Assembly: GCA_039030515.1 (NCBI GenBank)
Contig: JBCCEA010000005.1
Span: 32,001 to 96,000, forward strand
Length of the DNA: 64,000 nucleotides
Direction: 5' to 3'
DNA from: Myxococcota bacterium
GTDB taxonomy: Bacteria > Myxococcota_A > Polyangia > Polyangiales > Houyiibacteriaceae
Shown here: piece by piece, positions 10,975-58,273 of the stretch
Numbering within the stretch: the first letter of the stretch is position 1
Layout of the letters: each line of letters begins with the position of its first letter
Position numbers and translations under genes: made by a program
The notes under the pieces: model-generated
Database searches by the model: none
Seen by the model: the letters and a program-made list of their open reading frames with translations, nothing else
Told to the model about the DNA's origin: nothing

Positions 10975-11061
<87 letters not shown>

Positions 11062-12229: not shown

Positions 12230-12560
12230 GCTTCAGAAAACTTCAGAGCCGCATCCTGCTGTTCAGCGGATTCTCAAGAAGCTCGGAGCGAATATTCGCC
12301 TGGCACGCCTTCGTCGCGGGTTTTCAGCAGAGCTGGTCGCAGAGCGTGCGGGCATGTCTCGCCCAACCCTACGCGCAGTCGAACACGGTGAACCGAGCGT
12401 CAAGATCGGCTCATACGCGAAAGTGCTGCACACCCTTGGTCTGTATGAAGATCTCGCGCTTGTCGCACGTGACGATGCATTGGGAAGAAAGCTGCAGGAT
12501 GCCGACTTGCCTACCCGCCGAAGAGCGCGGAAGCGAACCTCCAAGGACCCGGCTCAGTGA
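12228..12560 (+). CDS. hipB: XRE-family HTH antitoxin (HipB-like)
   Basis: 'LGANIRLARLRRG...VAERAGMSRPTLRAVEHG...LARDDALGRKLQDA'; overlaps the hipA start. Confidence 0.85.
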   Translation: MLQKTSEPHPAVQRILKKLGANIRLARLRRGFSAELVAERAGMSRPTLRAVEHGEPSVKIGSYAKVLHTLGLYEDLALVARDDALGRKLQDADLPTRRRARKRTSKDPAQ

Positions 12561-13836
12561 GTGCGCGGCGCGAGATCGATGTGGTGGCGGATTGGGATGG
12601 CCTCGCCTGTCCCACCTTCATGGGAACGCTATCGGTCACGCAGGTACGAGGAAACGAGGTATTCGCCTTCGAATACGACACACAGTGGCTTGCATCGGCT
12701 TCACGACAGCAGCTCGATCCTTCGCTCCTGCTGTACCGCGGGCCGCAATACCCCTCGGGCGGGCGCAGCAACTTCGGCGTGTTCCTCGACTCCTCTCCAG
12801 ACCGCTGGGGCAGAGTTCTGATGCGGCGCAGAGAAGCTCAGCTAGCGCGAGAGCAAGGCAGGGATGAACGCAAACTACTCGAGTCTGACTACCTCTTGGG
12901 CGTGCACGATGGTCATCGGATGGGCGCGCTGCGTTTTAGAGTGGGTACGCGTTTTTTGGACGACAACGATCGACTCGCGTCTCCACCGTGGACCTCTCTC
13001 AGAGCGCTCGAGCGAGCGAGCCTTCAATTGGAGCGGCAAGGCGCAGAGGATGATCCGGACTATGGCCGGTGGCTGCAGATGCTTATCGCTCCCGGAGGAT
13101 CTCTCGGGGGTGCCCGACCAAAGGCGAGCGTCTGCGATGAACGCGGGAGGTTGTGGATTGCCAAATTTCCCAGCCGAAATGACGAATATGATACCGGAGC
13201 TTGGGAATTCGTGATGCATGCGCTGGCTACCGCCGCTGGTCTGACGGTCCCTGAAGCAAGAATCGAGTGCTACGGCCATGTCCGGGAGGAAGGTCGCGGG
13301 CATCGAACCTTCTTGAGTCGCCGCTTTGATCGTCTAGCAACAGGCGCTCGCCTTCATTTTTCATCTGCGATGACACTACTCGAACGTCAGGATGGTCACG
13401 ACGCAAACGATGGAGCCAGCTATCTTGAACTGGCCGACCTGCTTATGCGCCTCGGATCGAATACGTCGAGGGATCTCGAGCAACTGTGGCGACGCATCGT
13501 ATTCTTTATGTGCGTCTCCAATACAGACGATCATCTCCGCAATCACGGCTTTATGCTGAAGCGCGAAGGATGGGCCCTCGCTCCCGCATACGATATGAAT
13601 CCAGATGCATTTGGAGAGGGCCTGCGGCTCAACGTCTCCGAGACGGACAATGCTCAGGATCTCGAGCTCGCGAAAGCCACGGCCTCAGGGTTTCGTATAA
13701 AAAAAAAAGGGCCGAGGCGATCGTCACCGAGGTTGTACACGCGGTGCGTGGCTGGAGGAACGTCGCGACACGTCAGGGCATTTCTCGAGCGGAGCAAGAT
13801 AGGATGAAGCGAGCCTTTCGCTTGGCGGATGTGTGA
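12557..13836 (+). CDS. hipA: HipA-family kinase toxin, frameshifted at an A10 run near the C-terminus
   Basis: 'SLGGARPKAS', 'WIAKFP', 'RRFDR', 'NTDDHLRNHGF', 'LAPAYDMNP'. The typical C-terminus (RAEAIVTEVVHAVRGWRNVA...MKRAF, stop 13836) is in the -1 frame after the A-run at 13699-13708; the zero frame stops at 13807. Confidence 0.9.
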
Positions 13837-13897
13837 CCATGCATCACTGCCGGTTCCTTGTCGGGAGGTGCACCGCCAAGGTATGGCTCGTCCGAGT

Positions 13898-14971
13898 ATG
13901 AAACGCGCGAATCCTCTGGGTGCCCTACTGCTGCGCTGCGACGCCTCAAGGCAGACGGGCCTTGGGCATCTTTCTCGCTGTCTCGCCCTTGCAGACGAAT
14001 GGAAGCTCCGGGGAGGCCACGCGCTCTTTTTGATGCGATCCCTTCAACCTGATTTCAGCGATTTGGTGCGCACGCGGGGTCACCGGGCGCGGTTTGTCGA
14101 GGATGCTTCCGCACGGGGTACACCGGCTGCGGGCGAAATGGACCCGCTACCGAAGTCGGACGCAGAAGCGGTGGTCGCCGTCGCTGATGAGATACAGGCG
14201 GAGTGCATCGTCATCGACACCTACCTCGCCGGCGATTCCTATGTGTCCTGCGCCAAGCGCGGCGCATGGCAGATCCTGGTGATCGACGATGAAAGTGGAC
14301 GCAAGCTCTGTGATGCCGACGTGGTGGTCGATGTAGCCCGTACCGTCCCGCGCACCCCGAGATGGCTTGTGGGACCGAGCAGCGCGCTGCTGCATGCGGC
14401 TTTTGGTCGTCAGAGGCAGCAAAGGACGCCGCAGGACCGCAGCGGACTGCCCCGCAAGATTCTGCTCGCACTCGGTACGGCGGGCGGTCCCGAGCTTCCG
14501 CTGCGCATCGCCCACTACGTTCGCGATCTCTTGCCGAACGCCGATGTCTTCGTGGTGGTCACTCAGACCCTTTCGCCCCTCATGGCCGAGTCGCAAAAAG
14601 GCCTGGAGTTTGGTCATTCGCTCACCCCAGACGAGATGGCGCAGCGCATGGCCTGGGCAGACCTAGCGATCGCGACTCCCAGTACGGTCGCCTGGGAGCT
14701 CGCCACCGTGGGTGTGCCGTCCATTCTCAAAATCACGGTCGACAATCAGACGCCCGTCGCCGACCGAATCGCAGAGGATACGGTTGCCCCGATCGCTGAG
14801 ACCGTCGAGGAGCTGGAGCGATCGATCAAGACCTACCTCGCTCTAGATGCTCAGGAACGACGTGCACGCAGCGATCGATTCCGGGCGCTCTGCGATGGCG
14901 GAGGATGCGTGAGGGCCGTCGACGAGCTCCTTGCACCCCGCATTCAAAGACCTGCCGGTTCGGTGCAGTAA
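13898..14971 (+). CDS. pseG: PseG/SpsG-like UDP-sugar hydrolase/glycosyltransferase
   Basis: 'LRCDAS..TGLGHLSRCLALA', 'IVIDTY', 'STVAWELATVGVP', 'VDNQ', 'DGGG'. Confidence 0.75.
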   Translation: MKRANPLGALLLRCDASRQTGLGHLSRCLALADEWKLRGGHALFLMRSLQPDFSDLVRTRGHRARFVEDASARGTPAAGEMDPLPKSDAEAVVAVADEIQAECIVIDTYLAGDSYVSCAKRGAWQILVIDDESGRKLCDADVVVDVARTVPRTPRWLVGPSSALLHAAFGRQRQQRTPQDRSGLPRKILLALGTAGGPELPLRIAHYVRDLLPNADVFVVVTQTLSPLMAESQKGLEFGHSLTPDEMAQRMAWADLAIATPSTVAWELATVGVPSILKITVDNQTPVADRIAEDTVAPIAETVEELERSIKTYLALDAQERRARSDRFRALCDGGGCVRAVDELLAPRIQRPAGSVQ

Positions 14972-15078
14972 AGAAGACCTAGAGACCGACGGGCGCTTCA
15001 AGCCTCATCACAAGCATCCGCCGCACGCACTGCGCACTGTAGCCGACGCACTGCGCACTGTACCTGATATGGATCGTA

Positions 15079-15105
15079 ATCCACAGTGCCTGGTACGACT
15101 TGTCT
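15079..15105 (+). repeat. 27-bp dispersed motif, copy a
   Basis: ATCCACAGTGCCTGGTACGACTTGTCT; 23/27 identical to the reverse complement of 24057-24083. Confidence 0.6.
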
Positions 15106-15192
15106 TGTTCAGTCAAACTAGAGGGCAAGCACGGTGAAGAACTAGCTTACACGCCCAAAAATTCGTACTTCATTGGTTAAGGGGCCCAAAGT

Positions 15193-16335
15193 TTGCCTGA
15201 AAAACATTCTCCAAAGAGCACACCCAGTCGGCGGAGAGGTTATCTCTCTGCAGGGGGCGTAGTTTTTGTGTCGTTGCTTTTCAAGGTAATATTAGCTCTC
15301 ATCGCATTTGGATATTACCGATTTTTCACATGGCGATTTAGAGATCTAGAACCTTTAGAGCCGATACACCCGATACACCCGATACACCCGCTGCCCAGAC
15401 AATTCCCTTGGCGCCCTCCTCATGCCCCGTCCCCCAGGTCCAATTGGTCGCTGCAGCAAGCTACCCCCCACCCAGGAGGGATTCCTCTCTGCGTAGCGAT
15501 CTGGAAAGGAGCGAACACGAGTACGTGGGGCCCTGTCATGACGGGACAGGCCAACCACTGGCTGTCTCCAAGAGACAAAGCCTGGGAGGTTCCTCAGGGA
15601 ATTCATGGTGTTGTGGTCAACCCCTTTCCGGGGTGCGAAGCGGTCTTAATTCGACCTGATGGTACTTCGCTGACGATACCCGCAGCGGGTCCTCGAACCT
15701 TTGCTAGTGCATTCGGTACCATGCCAACGAGCATCACCGCGAGGTCGACCAGGGACCGCAAAGTACGAGTCGACAGTTTTTATGCGATGCGTGCAACGGC
15801 ACCTGCGAACCCAGCTCGGTTTTTCGAACCAATGCTTCGCGCCTTGCCGGAGGGCATCAATGGCCTAAACGGGATCTTCGGTCCAGACACGCTGGCGCTT
15901 CACCCTTCTCGCCCAGATACGGAAATCGATAATCCTAGTTCTCCGCATGCAGCCGAGGAGTATCGCGACGGTCTTGTAGTGTACAGAAACGGAGGGCATC
16001 TGGCGGTGGTCAATGCGATGCTCTCCAATCTCTACGGTCCGGCAAGCTTGGTAGACGCACATGGGAGCCGCGGATTCAGCGATGACCGGGTAGGGACACT
16101 CATGAGAGATCTCGATTTGCATGGTTTTGGGGTCGGGCTTCGGCGAGACCACCGAGGAGAGATCGTGGGGCTCGAGATACACTGGAAATCCCGTGGCGTG
16201 AATTGCGTCCGCGACCCCAGGTCCGGAGCCCTTGTGAAGCCTGATAAGAGGCACGAGATCACGGCCGCACTTAGGAAGCTATACCGAGGGCCTATCACTT
16301 TCGTCGAAGACCCACCTGTTGCGTGTCCGCGCTAG
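15193..16335 (+). CDS. Orphan membrane-anchored/secreted protein, paralogue 1 of a three-member family
   Basis: N-terminal hydrophobic helix, (PIH)3 linker, then CVAIW, FPGCE, NGIFG, HPS, GGH, WKSRGVNC, PPVAC; collinear with the ORFs at 20396 and 56725. Confidence 0.8.
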   Translation: MPEKHSPKSTPSRRRGYLSAGGVVFVSLLFKVILALIAFGYYRFFTWRFRDLEPLEPIHPIHPIHPLPRQFPWRPPHAPSPRSNWSLQQATPHPGGIPLCVAIWKGANTSTWGPVMTGQANHWLSPRDKAWEVPQGIHGVVVNPFPGCEAVLIRPDGTSLTIPAAGPRTFASAFGTMPTSITARSTRDRKVRVDSFYAMRATAPANPARFFEPMLRALPEGINGLNGIFGPDTLALHPSRPDTEIDNPSSPHAAEEYRDGLVVYRNGGHLAVVNAMLSNLYGPASLVDAHGSRGFSDDRVGTLMRDLDLHGFGVGLRRDHRGEIVGLEIHWKSRGVNCVRDPRSGALVKPDKRHEITAALRKLYRGPITFVEDPPVACPR

Positions 16336-16368
16336 CGGGTCGCCTAGTTCTCCCTCTACCGCGCCGAC

Positions 16369-16417
16369 ATTTACCGTACCTGGTATGGTTTGTCCTGGCC
16401 TTGTCCAGGTTCACAGG
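16369..16417 (+). repeat. 27-47-bp dispersed motif, copy b
   Basis: ATTTACCGTACCTGGTATGGTTTGTCC (16369-16395); 23/27 identical to the reverse complement of 24112-24138; similarity extends to TCACAG. Confidence 0.6.
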
Positions 16418-16560
16418 GCACGTGGCTGGAGCCATTGTCGATGCGACCTCGCACCGAAGTCGGCACCCTGCTAGACGGCGAAGATTGCAGAGCGATCTTC
16501 GAACCGAGGGCTGCACGGGGCGCTGATCTTAGGGGGCACATCAATGCATTTGGGGGATTC

Positions 16561-17325
16561 ATGATGGAACTGAGCGCCGTCATTCAAGCGCGGATGTCTT
16601 CGCGGCGTTTGCCCGGCAAGGTGATGCGTGACCTCGGCGGAACACCTGCGCTGGCTCACGTCGTCAAACGCTGCCGCGGCTTTGCGACTCAAGTCGTCGT
16701 GTGTACCAGCACCGACGCAAGCGACGACCCGATCGCAGGCTGGTGCGACCGTGAAGAAGTGCTCGTGGTCCGCGGCTCACTCGACAACGTATTTGCCAGA
16801 TTCCGCCAAACGCTACGCCACCCGCAGCTGAGGCAGACAGAGTTCTTCGCGAGGGTGACTGCAGACTGCCCACTCGTGAGCGATACCCTCGCGAACGAGG
16901 CGCTCCAAGTCGCGAGCTCAGAGCACGCCGACTACGTGGGCTTTGCTCCCGATTCCGCAGCAAGGGGGCTCGCCGTCGAAATCCTACGGACGCAAGCTTT
17001 TGAACGCATCGATATCGAATCGCTGTCTCGCTACGAACGCGAGCATGTGGCGCCGCGACTCTACAACGGCGTTGGCCACTTCAACGCGGTCTACATCAGC
17101 GCCCCGAAGGAGCTGGCGCATGCAGAGGTGCGTCTCACCCTCGACTATCCGGAGGATGCTGCGCTGCTCGATACGCTTTTATCGACCGACACCGACATGA
17201 CGGCCGAAGAAGCGGTGCGCCGGGTACTCGAAGATCCGCAGCTTTTTCGAATGAACGCCCATTGTAGGCAGCTGACCGACAATCAGCAGCGGAGCGAACC
17301 CGACAAAGAGCCCGGCGCGAACTGA
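16561..17325 (+). CDS. SpsF/PseF-like cytidylyltransferase
   Basis: 'VIQARMSSRRLPGKV', 'RGSLDNVFARF', 'RVTADCP', 'REHV', 'RLTLDYPED'. Confidence 0.85.
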   Translation: MMELSAVIQARMSSRRLPGKVMRDLGGTPALAHVVKRCRGFATQVVVCTSTDASDDPIAGWCDREEVLVVRGSLDNVFARFRQTLRHPQLRQTEFFARVTADCPLVSDTLANEALQVASSEHADYVGFAPDSAARGLAVEILRTQAFERIDIESLSRYEREHVAPRLYNGVGHFNAVYISAPKELAHAEVRLTLDYPEDAALLDTLLSTDTDMTAEEAVRRVLEDPQLFRMNAHCRQLTDNQQRSEPDKEPGAN

Positions 17326-17373
17326 CTCGCTTGGCCTTGTTCCAATCCTTCGGCAGAGGAGTCGGGCAGATGC

Positions 17374-17592
17374 AATAAGACGCAATCGATACAGCAGTCT
17401 CCAATAGCTAGAGTCCTTGGAGTGGCTTAGGACGGATCGTAAAAGGCTGGTATTTTGCACGTCAGACGACAGCGCGGTGAACTTCGCCGAACCCACATGA
17501 TTGCGGTTTGGAGCTTGTTTGCCGCCATCGTTGCACTTCTGATGCGTCCCAGAGCACGCACGCTCACGCTCGTAAGCCAGGGGATCCACCGC
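17374..17592 (+). repeat. 219-bp direct repeat A, copy 1 (dead-end 5' part of paralogue 2)
   Basis: Aligns ungapped with 20315-20533, about 9 mismatches by manual count. Confidence 0.95.
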
Positions 17593-17819
17593 TTCCGGCA
17601 ATGCGAATTGACATCCCCCTCTGCTTTGACGTTTTCTGAACGCAGGCCATATCGACCAAGGTCTGTTTCGAGCAGCAAGCGAAGGTGTTCCGCAGGGCCG
17701 GGCTCTTTCCCATCTTATGTCAAACATCATGCTCAATGAGTTTGATCAGTGGCTAGAGGCGAAATACTTAAGCAAGAAAGCTCGCTGAGCATGGAACTTC
17801 GGCTACAGCAAACCCGGCC

Positions 17820-18295
17820 CATCTGTCGGCCTTCATCGACCTCTACGCTAGGCGCGTTGTCGGCTATGCACTTGCGGACCGTAAGCGCACTGAGCTGTCG
17901 CTCCAAGCCTTTCAGCGCTCCCTTGCACTTTGCGGTGTCGGCGCCTCTCTTATCCTTCACAGCAACCGTGGGGATGAATGCGCAAGTCACGACTTTCGAG
18001 TCCTTCTCCAAGCGGTAGGTGCCATGCAGAGCGTAAGCGAAGCCGGCAACTGCTACGACAACGCCGTTGCAGAATCCTTCTTCGCTTCACTCGAACAAGT
18101 CTTGATCATGCGCACCCGATTCGAGACACGACAAAACGCCATGGCCAGCGTCACCTACTACATCCATAATTTCTATAACCCTATACGGCGGCATTCCCAC
18201 AATGGGCTTGTCAGACCAGAGAAGGCCTTCCTTGCATCCTTTCAACCCCTGGCTGCTTGAACATTTCTTCTCTCCACTTTTTCCGGGCAACTCCA
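17820..18295 (+). mobile_element. IS3-family remnant (integrase-core C-terminal part plus right end)
   Basis: Frame reads 'FIDLYARRVVGY...LILHSNRG...SEAGNCYDNAVAESFF...FYNPIRRHS' (stop 18260); catalytic HSD reads HSN; IRR-like TCTCCACTTTTTCCGGGCAACTCCA ends at 18295; orfA and left end not found. Confidence 0.85.
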
Positions 18296-18444
18296 CCGGA
18301 AACATAAAGTTCCGAAGAAAGGGCATTTCAGCCTCTTTCAATCAGCTTTAATTTCATAATATTCCGTTTATACTGAAGACCGATCCATATGCAGTATTGT
18401 ATGAGAAGACAAGGCTCGATTGCTGAATACGGAGGAGGGCTTCC

Positions 18445-20304
18445 TTGATATTAGGGTTCGAAGAAGAACTTACAGACTACTTTAATCTCATCAAAAGATT
18501 ACGAACTATATCCCCAATTAACCAAGAACGAAGCCAAACAGTTCCACTAAACGTAATCGATAGCTTGTCCTACTTTCAAGACGGATCCGAACTTCAACTG
18601 GCCCCGATCGCTAACCAGCTGAGACTCGCCGCAAGCAACATTCCAAGGGCAACGATGACGATCCGCAAGCTCAAAGAAAAACAATGCTTTGTTCTCTTGA
18701 GTTATAGTCCTTACCCGCATTTTCAGATCTTCTTCCGCAGTCGTACATCCCCTGTCATCGCTGATAACCTAGCTCTTTTTGTCGCGCGATTCGCTTGCGG
18801 AGAGGGATGGCAACGATACAACGCCGTTCAGAGACTCGACATTCCCGTGCGCACTTTAAGACAGAGCGCATCCAAGCCTCATCACGTTGAGAGCATAACT
18901 GAGAGACATCCCTACCCCGCTCTGTGGCCAAACCACCCAACTACGTATGGTGAACAGTTCAGACACCCAACTACCGATAAACATGCCAGCAGATCCTCAC
19001 TACTTGTGCAAGCTTTTCAAATTGCGACATGCGGTACATCTTCTCAACGAAGTGACAACAACGAATCTCAGTCAACAGATGACGAATGTTCCGTATTCGG
19101 CATTACGCCTTTCTCGGGGTTCGCTGCAGTCATACGATTTATCCGACTGGGGAGATTAAGAGTTTTGAAGGTTGAACCTTGGCAACGAAGCCCAGGAGAC
19201 CGAGCGTGGTTACCCCTTCGAAAAAAACCAGATCACATAACAAAACACCACGCCATGGTGACAAAGATGTTGGCGGGACGAAGCCTTGTCGATGATGCGG
19301 TAGCGCATATCGTTCATTGGCTCACCCAGTGCATCGAGAATCATGCAAATGCCGCTGAGCAAGACAGAGACCTAGATTTTTCTCTGTCATCAAAACTCAT
19401 AGCAGCAAGCTGCAACGCATACTATGAGCCGAGAAACGCCGAGAAACGATACTCACACAAGATTGAGGCAAACCTAGACGACTATGCTGACCTCAACCGA
19501 TTAGCGAGAATATTTGTCGCGCACGTTGTAGGATACACCGAAGAGCCTATGAGCTTCCAAAAAATATGGACTCTACTTCGGTTCATCGAGAATTTCATCT
19601 ACTCTAGAAAGATCCATATCGAAACGATAGCAAGACAGCTAGATCACTATTCATTGAATATTTATCTGAACCGATCTAGCTTAGATGAATATGTAACAAA
19701 TTTCGCCCGAGAAATTAGTGCATTAAAACCAGGTCAATGCATTTTCAAACAAAGCGCCTTTGACGGACACGCAATACTTTATCTATTGTTTAGACCTACA
19801 GACCTGTTTATCCAAGGCAGCCCGATCTGCTTTATTGAATGCAACTCAGGTTATCGAGCAGAGAGAAACGGCACCGTTTTCGAGGAGAAAACTCAACCGT
19901 ACTCGGAACTTCGGGCATCGGTCCGTTGTGGGCGCACTTTCTTAAGAAGGCGTCAGATGGAAGAGATGATTATGCCTAATATTTATACGCTAAACTCGCA
20001 CCAAACATGTTCGGAAACAGAAGCGCTGTCGCGACTACTAGGTTATTGGACGCTACAATATCAGAATTCCTTGCCCAAAGATTCCGAAGCATATCAACAG
20101 AGCATCGAAGAACCTCATTGGTCGATTGAACACTATCATCTAGCAAGCTCTTTGAATCATCATCCGCACTTCTCCACACTTCGGCAAATCCTCGCAGTAC
20201 CAGCTCAAGCCGGTGTCAGCTGCACCACTCAGTCACTGCTTATGGGTCTTAGAGCTATGGGCGCGCTGTATTTGGGACCTGCTGTGACAACCGGTAAAGC
20301 TTGA
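18445..20304 (+). CDS. AT-rich orphan with a putative cysteine-protease domain (H...N...Q-x4-C)
   Basis: 619-aa ORF visibly more AT-rich than its flanks; 'DGHAILY', 'FIECNSGY', 'PAQAGVSC'. Start uncertain. Confidence 0.6.
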   Translation: MILGFEEELTDYFNLIKRLRTISPINQERSQTVPLNVIDSLSYFQDGSELQLAPIANQLRLAASNIPRATMTIRKLKEKQCFVLLSYSPYPHFQIFFRSRTSPVIADNLALFVARFACGEGWQRYNAVQRLDIPVRTLRQSASKPHHVESITERHPYPALWPNHPTTYGEQFRHPTTDKHASRSSLLVQAFQIATCGTSSQRSDNNESQSTDDECSVFGITPFSGFAAVIRFIRLGRLRVLKVEPWQRSPGDRAWLPLRKKPDHITKHHAMVTKMLAGRSLVDDAVAHIVHWLTQCIENHANAAEQDRDLDFSLSSKLIAASCNAYYEPRNAEKRYSHKIEANLDDYADLNRLARIFVAHVVGYTEEPMSFQKIWTLLRFIENFIYSRKIHIETIARQLDHYSLNIYLNRSSLDEYVTNFAREISALKPGQCIFKQSAFDGHAILYLLFRPTDLFIQGSPICFIECNSGYRAERNGTVFEEKTQPYSELRASVRCGRTFLRRRQMEEMIMPNIYTLNSHQTCSETEALSRLLGYWTLQYQNSLPKDSEAYQQSIEEPHWSIEHYHLASSLNHHPHFSTLRQILAVPAQAGVSCTTQSLLMGLRAMGALYLGPAVTTGKA

Positions 20305-20314
20305 ATTCTACAGA

Positions 20315-20533
20315 AATAAGACGCAATCGACGCAGCAGTCTCCGATAGCTAGAGTCCTTGGAGTGGCTTAGGCCGGATCGCAGAAGGCTGGTATTTTGCA
20401 CGTCAGACGACAGCGCGGTGAACTTCGCCGAACCCACATGATTGCGGTTTGGAGCTTGTTTGCCGCCATCGTTGCACTTCTGATGCGTCCCAGAGCACGC
20501 ACGCTCACGGTCGTGAGCCAGGGGACCCACCGC
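20315..20533 (+). repeat. 219-bp direct repeat A, copy 2
   Basis: Matches 17374-17592; continues into paralogue 2. Confidence 0.95.
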
Positions 20534-21410
20534 CCCAACGCAGCAGATCCTCCGTGTGCAGCTTTTTGGACGAGCACGGAGCCTTTGAGGCCCGACTCCT
20601 ATCGACTGCATGGAAAACCACAGTGGTTGACGCCGGGAGACCCCCCCCATAAACCAACAGGTCATTGGCGCTGTGGTCTTCCCGGGCTGCGAGATAGTGA
20701 TGAGAGCGCCCTGGAGCTTTTCTGAAGTCGTCCCTTCCCACCAAATTTGGGCGCACCCGCCAAGCAAAGCGGAGGGTCCTCCGTTATTCAGAACGATTTC
20801 GGTCCGAAAAGCACGGAGCGGCGAGGTTGCCGCCTGGTACGGCGTGGCAGGTCTTAAGCCGCCTATCGACCCGAGGGCGAAGTTCCGGAGGATGCTCAAA
20901 TTGCTTCCGCCCGACGTGAATGGGTTTCAAGGCATTTATGGGGAGGACGGCACCTTGGTTCTCCATCCTTCGCGGCACGTTGGACAGGTAGACGACTTCC
21001 ACGACGTCTATGATTGGGAGTTGGCCGTGCAGACACGGTGCATTTCTCAGGGTCTTGTCCCCAGGCAGCATGGACATGTTAAAGTCTTGTTTAAGCTCCT
21101 TGCACTCACGAATGGCATGACGCGGGTGAGCGGTCCTCAGCAGGAGCAAGCCGTGGAGGAACGTTTGAGATTCACTGAAGGGCAGATTCGCACGCGGGGA
21201 CTCGTGGGGTTTGCGTTTACTTTCAAACGCCGCCGCGATGGAGGATTCGATGGCACGTTGTACTGGACTTCACGGCAACTCAATTGCCTCATTCCAAATG
21301 CGGACGGCAGCGCTCCTCCTGAGGCAAGGCAGGCCATCGAGGTGGCGATGAGGGAGATCTTTCCGGGTACGCTCAGATCGGCTGCCCCCAATCCTCCCGG
21401 ATGCAAGTAA
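20396..21410 (+). CDS. Paralogue 2 of the orphan family, split by a +1 frameshift at a C8 run
   Basis: The 5' frame gives a hydrophobic helix, CAAFW and WLTPGDPP. Removing one C at 20641-20648 joins it to INQQVIGAVVFPGCE...QGIYG...HPS...HGH...WTSRQLNC...PPGCK. Confidence 0.75.
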
Positions 21411-21629
21411 ACGAGTCTGTGAAGCTGGCGCAGAGCCCAAGGCGCGCAGCCGCGATCGGGCAGGCGCTGGCACGATAGACTCCGACCCGTTCGACAGGCA
21501 ACAACTCGCGTCCTGCTGAGACGTCTATCGGTCTTCAAAGACAGGCTGCATCCTAATCAAACGCTGCCGACTCCTGGACCGGATAGCGCCACAGACCCGG
21601 CATGGCGCTTTCGCGCTAGGCTGTGCCGC

Positions 21630-22541
21630 ATGGACTTTGCCTTTCTATATGACGCGCTCATCGCGAAACTGAAGCTGTGGGCTGAAGGGCTCACGACGAT
21701 GTTGCCCAACGCGATGGTCGCCACTGCCGTCGTGATCGCATTTTGGCTGCTTTCAAAACTTGCCTACAAGGTGAGCCAAAAAACCCTTGAACGCATCCAG
21801 ACGAATAAGGCGGCTCGCTCGCTCATGAGTACCGCGGTGCGCGTGTCTGTATTTGGCGCGGGTATCGTCATAGCACTAGGCGTGCTAAATCTCGACAAGG
21901 CGCTCACCTCGATACTCGCAGGCGCAGGGGTGGTCGGCCTTGCTTTGGGATTTGCGTTTCAGGATCTCGCCGCAAACCTCATTTCCGGAATCGGTCTCGC
22001 GATGAATCAGGAGCTGCCGTTCAAAATCGGAGATGTGGTAGAGACCAACAATACCTTCGGCACGGTCAAGAGCATCGGACTAAGAACCTCTCTCATCCAC
22101 ACTCCGGACGGAAAGACCGTGGTCATTCCAAATAAGAATGTGTATCAGGATAAGGTCGTAAACTATAGCGCCGCTGGCCGAATACGCATCGACCTGAGCT
22201 GCGGCGTATCGTACGGAGACGACCTGCAAAAAGTGCAATCCGTGGCTCTAGAAGCGATGGAGCAATTATCCAGTCGCGATACGTCATTGCCCGTCGAATT
22301 CTACTTTCAGGGATTCGGCGATAGTTCGATCAACCTGCTCGCCTGTTTCTGGGTGCGGTACGAAAAACACGCCGACTACCTGAACGCGATGAGTGAAGCC
22401 GTAAAGCGCTTAAAGGGCGCCTTCGACGAGCACGACATCGTGATTCCGTTTCCCATTCGCACCCTGGACTTCGGAATCCGCGGTGGCGAGCCGCTTGCAA
22501 GTGTCTTGGCGCACAGAGCAGATCGATCGCCCGGCGCTTGA
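21630..22541 (+). CDS. mscS: Small-conductance mechanosensitive channel
   Basis: 'GAGVVGLALGFAFQD', 'PFKIGD', 'IPN', 'GFGDSSIN', 'IPFP'. Confidence 0.92.
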   Translation: MDFAFLYDALIAKLKLWAEGLTTMLPNAMVATAVVIAFWLLSKLAYKVSQKTLERIQTNKAARSLMSTAVRVSVFGAGIVIALGVLNLDKALTSILAGAGVVGLALGFAFQDLAANLISGIGLAMNQELPFKIGDVVETNNTFGTVKSIGLRTSLIHTPDGKTVVIPNKNVYQDKVVNYSAAGRIRIDLSCGVSYGDDLQKVQSVALEAMEQLSSRDTSLPVEFYFQGFGDSSINLLACFWVRYEKHADYLNAMSEAVKRLKGAFDEHDIVIPFPIRTLDFGIRGGEPLASVLAHRADRSPGA

Positions 22542-22598
22542 AATCAGGGGAAATCGGGTCAACTGGAGCCCAGAACGGAATGTTGTATATGATTGGGC

Positions 22599-23852
22599 AT
22601 GGAAGACCGAGCATTTATACCGCTCAATGACCCCAGCGTTCCGGGTAGATTTGTGCTTATCGGTAACCCTGATAAAGACGTCAATGGCTGTCTTGGGTAC
22701 AATAAAAACGATATGAGCACTGCCGCTTTGACGGGGTCCTCCGAAGCGGGAATGACTCTCGAAGCCTTACTCCGCACCGCACACCGCGCCGTCCGGGCAG
22801 CCAGGCATTTCGTTCCAAACCCCCTGAACCACTATGGTTCGCCAGTCCTGGGGTCACTCTACAACATGGAGCACATGCTGTTGGCTTTGAACTGGTATGG
22901 AAAAGAATATCTCGCAAAAAGTCTTCAAGCTAGGTTCAGTTTACCGAAAAGTGCCGCAGACACGATGGCTACCTACATCGCGGTTGCGAGCGCAGGCAGA
23001 GTGGGTGGCACAGGAGTATGCGATACTTATGCAGCTCTAGTGATGTTGCACCTGAGTGCATATGCTGAGGGGCCGTGTGTGATTTCAATGCGCTTCGTTG
23101 AGGCACCAGGTTACCCCAATACCGAGCACGCAATCGTGGAAGTAGAATCAGGGGGAAATCGGGTAGTGATCGATGCGTGGCCCGAAACGCCACGTGTGCT
23201 CCCTCCGGAACACACCCTCTATCCTTCGGATAAGTGCACATCTGTGATGGCAATACTCGTGGAGCAGCCAGGTCCGTTACTTTTGAAAATGCCGTTATTA
23301 GCGACTGGTCGTAGTGCTGAGAAGGCTCTTCACGAGAAAGCACACGAAATAGAACGGATAATACGGCGATCGGGAATAAGCCGGGACGCCCAGATTCCCG
23401 CAGATGAATTGTTTTCGGGCCCCATGATTCAGTCTAGCAACGCCACCCCAGTAAATGACGCGCATCGCGTTCGGCTAATGGCACTCCCGGAAATCAGGAG
23501 AACCAGGGAACCTCCGTGGCGTAGAGACCCGATGACTAAGTCACGCATGCCTCCAGGCGGAGCGGGACCGATCTTTGACCCTGCTTGGTGGGCAAACCAC
23601 CCATCCCCTTGGAATTCATCTTCATGGCTCGAACCGAGATCTATCCCGTCGCGCTCGATGCCTTTGGGTGAATCTTCCGCACTGCCGTCAACTCCGGGCT
23701 CATCCACTACGACGCCTCTTATAGCTCTTGCAACGATTTTTTTTGGAGCCCTACTGCATTATTGCCTCAAGAAAAAGCCCTCGGGCCCAACTTCAGCGAA
23801 TGGACGTGGAAGGAGTCCTGGGCCCCAGCCGCGACGTCGAGGTCGACGCTAA
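22599..23852 (+). CDS. Orphan with papain/transglutaminase-like Cys-His-Asp triad and C-terminal TM plus basic tail
   Basis: 'GVCDTYAA', 'EHAIVEV', 'VVIDAWP'; Pro/Ser-rich linker; 'LIALATIFFGALLHYCL-KKK...RRRGRR'. Confidence 0.65.
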   Translation: MEDRAFIPLNDPSVPGRFVLIGNPDKDVNGCLGYNKNDMSTAALTGSSEAGMTLEALLRTAHRAVRAARHFVPNPLNHYGSPVLGSLYNMEHMLLALNWYGKEYLAKSLQARFSLPKSAADTMATYIAVASAGRVGGTGVCDTYAALVMLHLSAYAEGPCVISMRFVEAPGYPNTEHAIVEVESGGNRVVIDAWPETPRVLPPEHTLYPSDKCTSVMAILVEQPGPLLLKMPLLATGRSAEKALHEKAHEIERIIRRSGISRDAQIPADELFSGPMIQSSNATPVNDAHRVRLMALPEIRRTREPPWRRDPMTKSRMPPGGAGPIFDPAWWANHPSPWNSSSWLEPRSIPSRSMPLGESSALPSTPGSSTTTPLIALATIFFGALLHYCLKKKPSGPTSANGRGRSPGPQPRRRGRR

Positions 23853-23884
23853 TAATCGTAGACGGACAATAATCGTAGACGGAC
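23851..23884. repeat. 17-bp tandem duplication
   Basis: AATAATCGTAGACGGAC x2. Confidence 0.9.
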
Positions 23885-23971
23885 GAAGCGATCCCTCTGC
23901 CTGGTCAGGCAAGCCGAACGACCCCGCCCACAAGTCGCAGTCGAGGATCATGCATGCTCACATGGCAGACA

Positions 23972-24138
23972 GGGTAACCAGGGCGCGTCCTGGACACACC
24001 GCACTGGGTACGGACGTCTGAGCCTGCTGGTGGGTGCTGTGACGTGGGCGCGTCCTGGACAAGCCGTACCAGGAACGGTGGATTGGGTTCGCTGTGACCA
24101 AGGAGCGTCCTGGACAACTCGTACCAGGTACGGTGAAT
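23972..24138 (-). repeat. Cluster of three degenerate ~45-bp repeats (copies of the dispersed motif)
   Basis: GCGTCCTGGACA recurs at about 23985, 24050 and 24105; core palindrome CGTACC-A-GGTACG at 24120-24132. Confidence 0.75.
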
Positions 24139-55243: not shown

Positions 55244-55479
55244 CGAATATACTGCGCGCTGAATGCAATGCATTCGATAGCCGAATCTAGTGAGCAGTCG
55301 GGACGCGTCTGTCGCGTCTGATCGATGCGCTCACCGATTTAACTCGATTTCAGAAACCCGTCTCGTCGTGGACATCGCGTGTAGCGTGGCGCACGATGAA
55401 GGGCGTTCTATCAAAAGCTCTACGACCTTAAGGTCTGCAAGCTTCTGTGCACACCGCTCTCATTAAGAGAAATTCTGAT

Positions 55480-56352
55480 ATGACCGCGGAGGATCAGGCG
55501 GCGCGCACGATTCAGAGCATCGTACGTGGTTTCCTAGAAATTGGTCGTCGACGACATCTCGATCATGCTGCAAATGCAATACAGCGATGGTTCCGATCTT
55601 GTCAGGCGAGAGCCTACTTGCCCGAGCGCGTGTATGTCGATGGGGAAGGGGACATTTGCGTCCATTTCACCGCCGGAGTCTCATTCACGCTCGTTCCCCG
55701 AGACGTTGGGTCCCAAGACATCGAGATGGGGCCAACGGATAGATCTACCGCACGACTCGTTGCACAACGTCGGATCATAAGAACAAGCAAAGCTGTCCGA
55801 TGCGGAAACCCTGCATGTGGGAAAAGGGTCAGCAGCACAAGCAACCCGCCAGATTGGTGGTCACCAGCTGAAGTAAAGGCGCGAACGCTCTTTCTAAACG
55901 TCGGGGATCATGAAGGGGCCTTCGGCAACAGAGGCGGTTCTCAAGCTCGTCGCCCCGCCAGGACTAGCGGACTGTGTAGGAGCTGCCTGATGGAGGAGGT
56001 TCGCCGCAACGCTTTTGCAGGGATAGAGACAGGAGATCCCACCGGTTGCGACCCAGCCGCGACGCGCGAAGCTTTTCAGGCTTTGCTCGCCGCTTTGGAT
56101 GAGCGGCTCCCTATCCGCGTGGAGCACCTAGAATCCCCCCTACCCGTCGTTCAACCGCCTCCACAGAATGGAATATCGCAATACCAATGTAAAAAAAGAC
56201 CACTCCACTCTCAACTCAGGCATCGGATCAAAGTTGAGTGCTACTTTGCGTTCATCGTTTTCACTCTCATCGCCTGTGCTGCCCTTTTCGGATGGATCGT
56301 GTACGAGCACACCTATTCGTCTGACCGACTTCTCGGCAGCGTCAGCCCTTAG
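55480..56352 (+). CDS. Orphan with two IQ-like motifs, Cys pairs and a C-terminal TM helix
   Basis: 'AARTIQSIVRGFL', 'AANAIQRWFRSCQAR'; 'CGNPAC' and 'CRSC'; hydrophobic 'YFAFIVFTLIACAALFGWIVY'. Confidence 0.65.
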   Translation: MTAEDQAARTIQSIVRGFLEIGRRRHLDHAANAIQRWFRSCQARAYLPERVYVDGEGDICVHFTAGVSFTLVPRDVGSQDIEMGPTDRSTARLVAQRRIIRTSKAVRCGNPACGKRVSSTSNPPDWWSPAEVKARTLFLNVGDHEGAFGNRGGSQARRPARTSGLCRSCLMEEVRRNAFAGIETGDPTGCDPAATREAFQALLAALDERLPIRVEHLESPLPVVQPPPQNGISQYQCKKRPLHSQLRHRIKVECYFAFIVFTLIACAALFGWIVYEHTYSSDRLLGSVSP

Positions 56353-56419
56353 GGTAGCTGCAGGGACCAAACAGGCAGCTTTTCCTTTTCAAGCCACGCA
56401 TAGACTCCGTAGGTCTGCA
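56232..56419 (+). repeat. 188-bp direct repeat B, copy 1
   Basis: Aligns ungapped with 58086-58273, about 6 mismatches by manual count. Confidence 0.95.
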
Positions 56420-56724: not shown

Positions 56725-57906
56725 TTGATGAGTCTTAGTCCTACAAATACTGGCTCTGACCGACATGATCCAGTCGTTGACCCGCAAGTCAGGCCCCCTC
56801 CTGGTGCAGCACGTCAGCAGCGATGCAGAATGAGGCCTCAGTACTTGTTACTTCTCTACGTGGCAGTGCTTCTGCCTCACTATCGACGCATCGGAGCGAT
56901 CCTGCGAGGCAGAGGATTTGCACCCTTAGGTCCGGTACAACCACTCAATCGCTGGTCTTCTCCGGACACGACGCTTGCCTGGTCCGGCGACTTTGCATGG
57001 CCCAATAACTGGGTGAACGCGACGCATCCCTCCGGGGGGGCGCATCAAAGCGTTCTGCCTTGCGTGGCTCTATGGATCCACGAGTCGAATCCAACTCAAA
57101 TGCATCGAAATCCTGATGAGCCTGTCCTACAGGATCCCGGCAAATGGCTGGATAGAGACAAGTGCGTTCCGGTTCCCGGAGGCAGCCGAGCAGTGGTCGT
57201 CGTCTACCCGGGATGTGAAGCCACCGTGACGAGCAGTGACGGGGCGATGTCGGTTGTGGTGACCGCGGTAAGACCTCAAACATTTGCTACGGGAGAACAC
57301 TCTGGAACATATTATGTATCAGCTCATCCAGTGAATCCTAAAGAACAACGCATCCAAAATTGGTACGATATCCGCGGGACACCACCCCACATCAACCCCT
57401 CCCAACGATTTCAATACATGCTTGACAGTATGCCAGAGGATGTAACTGGGTTTAACGGTGTATACGGCACGGGTTTATTCGTCGTTCACGCTTCTCTCGA
57501 GCCATCCTTCATGATGCTATTTCGTCCGCAACGGCGTGCGAAGATGGAAGCAGGAATCGTCACTAGTCGGAGAACGGGACACGAGAAAGTCCTCAACTTT
57601 TTGCTCCGTGCTTACTACGGACCGGGGCCCGACCCAGATGCAGGCACAGTAGGATCACGACGACAACAGGCGCAGAACCTCATGAAGCAGCTGGACCTGG
57701 CAGGCTTTGCACTAGTGATGAAGAGAAACCGGAAAGGCTCCGTCGTCCGACTCGGACTGAGCTTCAAGTCGAGGGGGATCAATTGCCGAGGCTCGGGAGC
57801 CAACGGCCTCGCAGACGAGCGTATGCAGAGGGCTATCACCCGGAAAGTCGAGAGCCTATTCCAGGGGCCAGTAGTGAGGATCGAACATCCACCCGTTATG
57901 TGTTGA
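56725..57906 (+). CDS. Paralogue 3 of the orphan family
   Basis: Hydrophobic 'YLLLLYVAVLL', CVALW, YPGCE, FNGVYG, HAS, TGH, FKSRGINC, PPVMC. True start may be ATG 56830. Confidence 0.8.
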   Translation: MMSLSPTNTGSDRHDPVVDPQVRPPPGAARQQRCRMRPQYLLLLYVAVLLPHYRRIGAILRGRGFAPLGPVQPLNRWSSPDTTLAWSGDFAWPNNWVNATHPSGGAHQSVLPCVALWIHESNPTQMHRNPDEPVLQDPGKWLDRDKCVPVPGGSRAVVVVYPGCEATVTSSDGAMSVVVTAVRPQTFATGEHSGTYYVSAHPVNPKEQRIQNWYDIRGTPPHINPSQRFQYMLDSMPEDVTGFNGVYGTGLFVVHASLEPSFMMLFRPQRRAKMEAGIVTSRRTGHEKVLNFLLRAYYGPGPDPDAGTVGSRRQQAQNLMKQLDLAGFALVMKRNRKGSVVRLGLSFKSRGINCRGSGANGLADERMQRAITRKVESLFQGPVVRIEHPPVMC

Positions 57907-58085
57907 ATAGGGGCATCTGGGAGTGCGGGTGTCTGGGAGTGCTCTCGCTGCTGCCCTGCACCACGCTTCACGTAGTCAACCAACGTCTTCGCTTCCGGAA
58001 CAGACTCATGCACTCTCGGTTGAAAGAGCCGTAAGCACATGAACTCACCGCTTCCGTAGGCCCTAAATATCTCATATCAGATTAG

Positions 58086-58273
58086 AGTTGAGTGCTACTT
58101 TGCGTTCATCGTTTTCACTCTCATCGCCTGTGCTGCCCTTTTCGGATGGATCGTGTACGAGCACACCTATTCGTCTGAACGACCTCTCGGCAGCGTCAGC
58201 CCTTAGGGTAGCTGCAGGGGCCAAACAGGCAGTTTTTCCTCTTCAAGCCACGCATAGACTCCATAGGTCTGCA
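58086..58273 (+). repeat. 188-bp direct repeat B, copy 2 (contains the slt 3' end)
   Basis: Matches 56232-56419. Confidence 0.95.

Follow-up and report, generated by a model that had tools for sequence, protein, structure and literature searches.

This report concerns a cassette at positions 17374-20533 of a 64-kb stretch of DNA (C5:32001-96000, i.e., the window, in whose numbering positions are given unless a contig is named), which is part of a 4.08-Mb, 75-contig, 85%-complete assembly. The host is an uncultured marine myxobacterium; its rpoB is at most 82% identical to those of Myxococcota and Polyangiales metagenome-assembled genomes (MAGs), and the sequencing runs that hold the stretch are marine metagenomes from a single study. 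In the cassette, two copies of a 219-nt segment flank an insert consisting, in this order, of a reverse transcriptase (RT) fragment, a truncated insertion sequence (IS) of the IS3 family and a 619-codon open reading frame (ORF), referred to as ORF619. The downstream copy is contiguous with P2, a member of a small gene family, P. The locus comprises the following features:

16390-17325, + strand: left flanking gene, a cytidylyltransferase (CTP_transf_3, PF02348, E 7e-20), GC 0.61
17374-17592, no strand assigned: repeat copy 1, a relic of the P2 upstream region and first 46 codons, joined to the left flank and to the insert in Logan contigs
17455-17739, + strand: dead-end ORF starting in copy 1 and ending within the RT scrap region, 94 codons from TTG 17455 or 80 from ATG 17497
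17621-17767, + strand: fragment of a group II intron reverse transcriptase/maturase, about 49 residues with one in-frame TGA
17817-18295, + strand: IS3-family remnant, the transposase 3' third and an intact right terminal end (NF033516 positions 233-367 of 369, E 1e-32)
18445-20304, + strand: ORF619, GC 0.46, with GGAGGAGG 5 nt upstream of its TTG start
20315-20533, no strand assigned: repeat copy 2, contiguous with the rest of P2 by repeat search, BLAST and Logan contigs
20396-21410, + strand: P2, frameshifted, with a leader frame at 20396-20725 and a C-domain frame at 20631-21410

The repeat pair and its insert

Repeat search and ungapped comparison align 17374-17592 with 20315-20533 as direct repeats of 219 nt with nine mismatches (96% identity) and 2722 bp enclosed between them, in exact agreement with the coordinates, the approximate number of differences and the spacing given in the original prediction. 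Copy 1 begins 48 bp after the cytidylyltransferase stop codon. Both edges of the repeat are sharp, and the flanking sequence beyond them is unalignable. The mismatches, at repeat positions 17, 18, 30, 59, 67, 69, 196, 201 and 212, are unevenly spread: none falls in the central 126 nt (17443-17568 and 20384-20509), compared with nine in the outer 93 nt, and an identity block of this length has a probability of ~0.005 for nine random points in 219, by (n+1)(1-L/N)^n. The repeat occurs in just two copies in the assembly (BLAST E 1e-95 to 1e-98), and the only other repeat of at least 60 nt in the window is a 198-nt pair at 56222-56419 and 58076-58273.

The junctions were compared with independent contigs, i.e., the Logan k=31 contigs of four runs (X1-X4, of which X1 is possibly the source sample of the assembly) over positions 16000-22000. 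In X1 the left flank reaches 17472 at a depth of 21.9 and the right flank starts at 20480 at a depth of 21.1; the 126-nt core at 17443-17568 forms a separate contig at a depth of 40, and one 2875-nt contig (17539-20413, depth 17.2) spans both junction A, where copy 1 meets the insert, and junction B, where the insert meets copy 2. The runs X2, X3 and X4 carry junction A and/or junction B. Since the junctions are present in the run contigs and the core has double depth, both junctions are real and the core occurs twice per genome, which speaks, as far as the junctions go, against the assembly artefact that the original prediction had itself named as its possible undoing.

The k=31 words are nevertheless identical for the integrated form and for an empty site plus a 2941-bp circle, and the integrated form might thus reflect how the assembler threaded the contigs, or be just one of the states of a mobile unit, with the empty site and the circle, or a mixture, as the actual arrangement. 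Both ends of the insert contig lead into the one 126-nt core contig in the k=31 graph, and the depth of the insert is slightly under that of the flanks in X1 (17.2 vs 21.9/21.1) and in part of X2 (8.8 vs 11.1/9.9; the X2 insert ranges over 8.8-13.2, between a left flank at 11.1 and a right flank at 9.9). However, the insert has about 0.8-1 times the depth of the flanks in each of three samples, and the putative circle would hold pseudogene scraps and one ORF, with no replication or recombination gene. The same contig also resolves a second cassette, described below, and other contigs resolve more; moreover, the largest k that common metagenome assemblers use exceeds the 126 nt of the core. The constant depth ratio and the absence of a replication gene from the circle favour the integrated form, and we regard a free circle as improbable.

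The X2 insert differs from the window by six single-nucleotide polymorphisms (SNPs) in 2177 bp (18156, 18181, 18288, 18314, 19386 and 19598), as opposed to none in the 2176 bp of the X2 flank contigs (1128 nt + 1048 nt), a pattern that hints at a separate history for the cargo. In X4, contigs diverged by ~3-6% cover the flanks, and the insert is represented by exact low-depth pieces only.

The repeat consists of the upstream region and the N-terminal hydrophobic segment of P2, as had been predicted, and the segment is also positively charged. Within the repeat, copy 1 has 46 codons from TTG 17455 or 32 from ATG 17497, and the reading frame then enters the scrap and stops, i.e., copy 1 dead-ends as claimed. 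The companion claim, that copy 2 continues into the gene, holds for the contiguity with P2 and fails for a clean reading: P2, which starts at TTG 20396 or ATG 20438, breaks frame at a C8 tract at 20641-20648, with the motifs PC..W and WL.P in the leader frame and FPGCE and the remaining C-domain in another frame. The sequence at the break is present with identical letters and no gaps in contigs of X1 and X2, and the frameshift is therefore more than a slip of the window's assembly alone; P2 may be a pseudogene, or be subject to phase variation or slippage. Loss of a single base from the C8 tract would bring the leader and the C-domain into one frame.

The insert opens with the RT fragment, which was overlooked in the original prediction and is the sole RT-like match in the genome; it aligns with positions 158-206 of 353 of TIGR04416 (E 2e-8 to 2e-9) and with RVT_1 (E 0.003). 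The predicted IS3 remnant is present as a 5'-truncated piece with an intact right end. Its transposase part is a single open frame from about 17817 to a stop codon at 18258-18260, with matches to rve, rve_3 and rve_2, and its right tip, ...CAACTCCA, ends at 18295, a position set by alignment to the family member G007, in which six contig ends have the sequence in common as far as ...GTCCA and differ beyond it. The left end and the first ~232 of the 369 transposase profile positions, about two thirds, are missing, and there are no other copies of 17593-18444 in the assembly. In G007, at least six contig ends coincide with this IS3 right end, at 84-85% identity to 18247-18297, which suggests that a related IS is multicopy and probably active in that genome.

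A rearrangement mediated by IS3, through a composite transposon, one-ended transposition or an adjacent deletion, could in principle have made the repeat, and a remnant with an intact right end does lie in the insert, just as an IS66 fragment lies in a comparable cassette on contig C26. The right end is, however, internal to the cargo and away from both junctions, and two thirds of the transposase are missing together with the left end. Junction A adjoins the RT scrap, with no IS end there; an IS3 left end at the junction, which the original prediction had held to be fatal to itself, was looked for and not found, and the structure is therefore not a product of IS3 transposition. Target duplications of IS3 elements measure a few bp, compared with 219 bp here, and neither both ends nor a complete OrfAB is present; two further cassettes, the second one in the window and one on contig C1, have no transposase match in the ORFs scanned. 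An IS3 origin is thus very improbable, and the remnant, whose right end is shared with copies in a family member, is a dead passenger and not the maker of the junctions.

ORF619 starts 149 bp (42% GC) after the IS tip, ends ten bases before copy 2 and has a ribosome-binding site of its own (GGAGGAGG), 150 bp past the tip. The original prediction of an AT-rich protease gene stands in its first part, with 46.3% GC compared with 55-61% in the flanks, and is not established in its second, there being no family match and a weak likeness in fold. No Pfam or NCBIfam family matches ORF619, and a search of 5.8 billion clusters returned only a shorter gene call of ORF619 itself. Over its C-terminal ~190 residues it has 24-28% identity to three further ORFs in this genome, and Q32-C33, H43, E66-C67-N68, H159-W160 and Q189..S193-C194 are invariant in all four of these paralogous C-domains. 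Residues 400-619 were modelled by AlphaFold with intermediate confidence (pLDDT 66, pTM 0.68), and the model has no Foldseek match at E<=0.001. In VIA-align it scores best against two Legionella proteins, AnkD (Z 6.0 over 143 aligned residues) and AnkH (Z 5.8), both in cysteine-protease-like regions, followed in lower rows by papain-like proteins at Z 2.6-3.8 (TseH 3.8, PLAAT4 3.1, AvrPphB 2.8), all of them below the tool's noise level of 7-8. A protease is thus a weak lead from modeling rather than a finding, and the label is unproven.

Two tandem members of the family that shares the ORF619 C-domain lie at C5:118241-122164, each apparently split into two ORFs (139+205 and 149+169 residues). 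Each tandem copy is preceded by a 181-nt repeat at 91.7% identity, and the bodies are 46-66% identical.

Recurrence of the geometry in the genome

The 198-nt pair belongs to a second cassette at 56-58 kb of the window, in which the cargo is another member of the P family:

55447-56352: IQ-motif/transmembrane (TM) gene, upstream neighbour of the second cassette
56222-56419, no strand assigned: repeat copy 1, the real 3' end of the IQ-motif/TM gene and a relic of the SLT 3' end, by ungapped comparison
56725-57906, + strand: P3, the cargo, of the P family
58076-58273, no strand assigned: repeat copy 2, a relic of the IQ gene 3' end and the real 3' end of the SLT/TPR gene
58203-60527, - strand: SLT/TPR gene, convergent with the IQ gene

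The copies differ at nine positions and enclose 1656 bp; the longest identical stretch is 93 nt, with a chance of ~0.03 by the same arithmetic. The repeat is made up of the last 131 nt of the IQ gene and the last 71 nt of the SLT gene, and each copy restores the 3' end of one neighbour. Because the stop codons of the two genes overlap, P3 could not have come to lie between two intact genes except through an insertion that duplicates its target. Four differences in the SLT part cause two amino acid changes, and five in the IQ part cause four. The claimed match in geometry between the two cassettes is thus borne out, with a different repeat, a different cargo and nine mismatches in each. The 301-residue protein encoded at 55447-56352 combines an IQ calmodulin-binding motif (PF00612, E 2.9e-5, residues 40-56), which is eukaryote-like and here occurs in a myxobacterial MAG, with a C-terminal hydrophobic segment.

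The P family has four members in the genome, i.e., P1, P2, P3 and one on contig C11. P1 precedes the first cassette:

15193-16335, + strand: P1, with a membrane anchor at the N terminus and a Cys-containing domain at the C terminus; identity to P2 and P3 28-31%

P1 matches no Pfam or NCBIfam family. A profile of the four members retrieved four proteins from 1.84 billion representative proteins, all from their own genome, and a word-based search with P3 returned only P3 itself. The cargo ORFs are thus lineage-restricted, the ORF619 C-domain family and P3 being found in this genome alone.

A catalogue of similar duplications throughout the genome, as suggested with the original prediction, was compiled by self-comparison for repeats of 120-1000 nt, at least 90% identical and 0.5-12 kb apart. 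It holds 11 direct pairs (nine unique) and no inverted pair, and with repeats down to 25 nt the numbers become 17 unique direct and no unique inverted pairs; the lengths of the local direct repeats range without a break from 31 to 887 nt. About six of the nine unique pairs are cassette-type when this is defined by sharp edges and unrelated cargo, and two loci, C21:39462 and C60:1, were left out as many-copy repeats. Apart from the two cassettes of the window, these are:

C1:48211: cassette, 249 nt, 95.6% identity, 3.7 kb
C26:22833-28863: cassette, 887 nt, 93.3% identity, 4.3 kb
C27:33889: cassette, 471 + 313 nt, 95% and 92% identity, 5.4 kb
C27:6358: cassette, 129 nt, 94.6% identity, 5.5 kb

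The C26 cargo comprises an orphan 740-residue ORF and a truncated IS66 transposase, and copy 1 of the duplicated 281-residue gene is frameshifted. The C26 copies have a dN/dS of 0.64 (Sd 11.5, Nd 22.5), a value compatible with both of the main models considered below; elsewhere there are too few sites for the ratio. Each repeat matches only its own partner, and when the six cassettes were compared in six junction-side classes, none of the classes had a shared 8-mer, in line with the predicted recurrence of a geometry with unrelated sequences. A shared junction motif was suggested by the cargos of cassettes 1 and 2, which at their left ends agree in eight of the first ten bases, and by the 11-mer CACCGCTTCCG at junction A, which also lies near junction B of cassette 2; both likenesses were judged to be post hoc and within chance, and the motif was rejected. 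Two pairs of short local direct repeats, at C5:100843-106808 and C2:201756-207085 (44 nt at 100% and 60 nt at 98%, with 5-6 kb between the copies), may delimit further islets in the manner of att sites.

Tandem arrays of paralogues at C2:186068, C5:118241, C6:113674 and C25:12401 represent a different phenomenon, in which the members share only a conserved end patch (140-280 nt, 88-93% identical) and the bodies are 32-66% identical in protein. They make it conceivable that copy 1 is what remains of a tandem P2 paralogue, its 5' end kept by gene conversion and its body destroyed by mobile elements; a unit of similar kind is reported in the tandem lipoprotein genes of Staphylococcus aureus (PMC2568036). 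At the present locus, however, homology stops sharply after 219 nt instead of extending over a whole unit, no P-family body is present in 17593-20314, and a search with the P2 C-domain gives four loci, none of them in the insert. The end of ORF619 should furthermore recur downstream of P2, where it is absent, and the repeat of cassette 2 is composed of two gene ends and involves no paralogue. We therefore give little credence to a lost paralogue as the source of copy 1.

Origin of the insertion-duplication

The structure is a genuine chromosomal insertion-duplication, a known type of scar. In the laboratory form of insertion-duplication, Campbell integration, a non-replicating circle with an internal chromosomal fragment integrates by a single crossover, and direct repeats of the target flank the insert. 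A recombinase-independent single crossover of this type is, tentatively, our best reading of the cassette, with break repair in one step as a close rival. The entry point would be the 5' end of the orphan P2, of which 219 bp (the promoter region and 46 codons) would have come to lie on both sides of a 2722-bp mosaic made up of the RT fragment, the 5'-truncated IS3 and one apparently intact, lineage-restricted ORF. The donor would be circular or ends-in DNA of a sister strain, with the cargo adjoining a copy of the 219 bp diverged by a few percent, and the exchange would take place by homologous recombination inside the 126-nt block of perfect identity. Copy 1 would be left as a non-functional relic, copy 2 would keep the 5' end proper to P2, and later recombination between the copies could delete the islet. 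We infer the donor, the circle and the RecA step.

Several observations argue for a Campbell-type crossover. Copies of one contiguous target segment abut the insert on both sides in the same orientation, and the stretches of perfect identity (126 nt here, 93 nt in cassette 2) are long enough for homologous exchange. The central mismatch-free block is counted in favour of this reading because homologous exchange between diverged partners requires perfect identity. Since the cargo families are confined to this genome, the donor probably belonged to the same lineage, i.e., was a sister strain. The SNPs of the X2 insert, with none in flanks of equal length, the return of the geometry with unrelated repeats of 129-887 nt and the precedents discussed below likewise speak for this reading.

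The main alternative is an illegitimate insertion in a single step with target duplication in situ, the copies being identical at birth and having drifted to a difference of 4%. A staggered break of ~219 nt or a stalled fork would have taken up a foreign fragment that was copied or ligated, by template switching as in MMBIR (break-induced replication that is mediated by microhomology) or by fill-in and end joining. This route is more parsimonious, since two junctions suffice and no donor with a pre-existing junction between cargo and repeat is called for. The differences between copies look neutral (C26 dN/dS 0.64; mostly non-synonymous in cassette 2 and in the P2 leader), the overlapping stop codons of cassette 2 demand a duplicating insertion, junction A cuts arbitrarily into pseudogene scrap, and the direct repeats form the continuous length series mentioned above. 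Yet uniform drift by itself, with no gene conversion, leaves the distribution of mismatches (0/126 vs 9/93) unexplained. A search of the genome gave no Ku (PF02735), which, at 85% completeness, does not establish its absence. To our knowledge, no documented bacterial process gives target duplications of 130-890 bp around kilobase inserts, and the template-switching literature searched, in the parts covered, describes eukaryotic cases only. On balance we consider a one-step insertion somewhat unlikely, although it stays close to the preferred Campbell-type crossover.

A number of points weigh against that crossover. No donor, empty site or circle was seen, and there is no close relative among the genomes searched (40 from the family and order, and 40 from the family). 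The copy differences look neutral, unlike those of two selected alleles (C26 dN/dS 0.64; mostly amino acid-changing in cassette 2), which fits in-situ duplication and decay at least as well. The Campbell model also presupposes that an illegitimate event had already taken place in the donor and that a circle was closed. The central identity block is significant in the present cassette alone (~0.03 in cassette 2, uniform spread in C1 and C27), and gene conversion could produce such a block as well. Finally, repeats more than ~96% identical would break short-read assembly, and the 93-96% identity of the cassettes may therefore be a window of visibility that implies no shared donor.

The searches for relatives had the following outcome. 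DNA comparison of 16390-21500 with the 40 family and order genomes gave just short IS-end matches, in two of the 40, and the flanking cytidylyltransferase has matches in two of 40 family genomes at 35-37% identity, which makes it useless for synteny. A 28-mer of the repeat core had no match in metagenome contigs, and a related-loci search with a 1075-residue protein of the window found no relatives.

Site-specific integration was considered and rejected. Restoration of the target, as at att sites, is seen in both cassettes, copy 2 restoring the P2 5' end and the copies of cassette 2 restoring the 3' ends of their neighbours; however, there is no integrase match and no att core common to the six cassettes. 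When the cargo ORFs and the scraps were scanned with Pfam and NCBIfam for tyrosine or serine recombinases, only rve (DDE) and RT fragments came up, and an older integrase decayed beyond recognition would escape such scans.

Comparison with known systems places the cassette among insertion-duplications. It resembles Campbell integration in its direct repeats of a contiguous target, in the 129-887 nt usable for homologous exchange and in a product that can revert; it differs from the laboratory case in being a natural event, with copies that differ by 4%, with no vector, circle or donor observed and with a cargo of mosaic scrap and an orphan. The MccH47 island of Escherichia coli has imperfect direct repeats of 148/144 bp and 76% identity and no recombinase, recombines in stretches of identity, and was shown by experiment to excise and integrate independently of RecA (PMC3191183). 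It is likewise a small island with long imperfect direct repeats and no recombinase, unlike the present case in that the repeats here are 96% identical and represent the demonstrable 5' end of a neighbouring gene.

In E. coli K-12, the e14 prophage is flanked by icd and a displaced icdC fragment; it is described as a 15-kb prophage with a site-specific recombination system of its own, the excision of which yields a chimeric copy (PMC13626634). On that description, e14 and the cassette alike lie between the end of a target gene and a slightly different second copy, with the gene kept whole, but the cassette has no integrase, the part of the target that it duplicates is a 5' end, and its block of perfect identity is central instead of at one edge. 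Transformation of Streptococcus pneumoniae can trigger merodiploidy by alternative pairing and unequal crossing-over, with a partly homologous donor fragment leading to duplication via sister-chromatid recombination (PMC3784515). This likewise offers a route to the order repeat, foreign DNA, repeat with no recombinase; however, the pneumococcal duplications are of 100-900 kb and bordered by IS copies, compared with 0.1-0.9 kb around 1.7-5.5 kb of cargo here.

Given the MccH47 and Campbell precedents, a new mechanism is not required. Of the original interpretation, a real and recurrent structure not made by IS3 stands, and the proposed novelty does not, since Campbell integration is known to leave repeats of this kind. 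The accompanying idea, of newcomers stacking where an orphan already stands, is not supported; its basis is two or three loci.

Surrounding genes, cargo direction and significance

Upstream of the region, a HipA-like kinase gene (HipA_C, E 1.7e-45) lies at 12557-13807. P1 (15193-16335) stands between a 380-residue ORF with no Pfam match (13829-14971), which we take to resemble a PseG-type sugar-nucleotide enzyme, and the cytidylyltransferase (16390-17325), and this orphan may split a sugar-nucleotide gene pair (13829-17325). A 21-nt tandem repeat is present at 15025-15066. Just past mscS, a 419-residue orphan ORF (22593-23852) has no Pfam or NCBIfam match and, by eye, a Cys...His...Asp spacing reminiscent of C39-like peptidases. 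There is no tRNA at the insertion site, the sole tRNA of the window being at 10975-11061, and no Rfam family (E<=0.1) in 14000-24000. A promoter scan of 17200-20800 gave two promoter-like sites, compared with 2.7 expected, and none inside the repeat.

The suggestion that such duplications shuffle export leaders onto new cargo finds no support and is rejected: the leader of copy 1 is fused to no cargo gene, its ORF dying in pseudogene scraps, and P2, the owner of the leader, is itself frameshifted. All cargo features at this locus are co-directional with the upstream, promoter-bearing repeat copy, and the largest cargo ORF points away from that copy in all five cassettes that could be assessed, as read from ORF maps; a strand bias of the neighbourhood could explain this co-direction equally well. 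For annotation, the frameshifted P2, the relic leader ORF and the two dead mobile-element scraps should not be called genes.

The cassette represents a real and recurrent insertion-duplication, free of a recombinase and carrying lineage-only genes, and its scar type is already known. It is conceivable, although doubtful, that recombinase-independent insertion-duplication is a routine route by which ORFans are installed in this lineage, with the newcomer placed downstream of a spare native promoter or in the path of read-through and hence on a selectable path to an expressed gene. If so, each event would leave the neighbours intact by duplicating 0.1-0.9 kb at the point of entry, be it promoter, gene start or gene ends. 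Provided that the cassettes are what they seem, half a dozen natural insertion-duplications in one genome let lineage-only genes enter tight neighbourhoods that remain unbroken, including the space between convergent genes with overlapping stop codons. This would bear on the acquisition and first expression of ORFan genes, and on the part played by single crossovers, relative to dedicated mobile-element enzymes, in moving accessory DNA between close strains.

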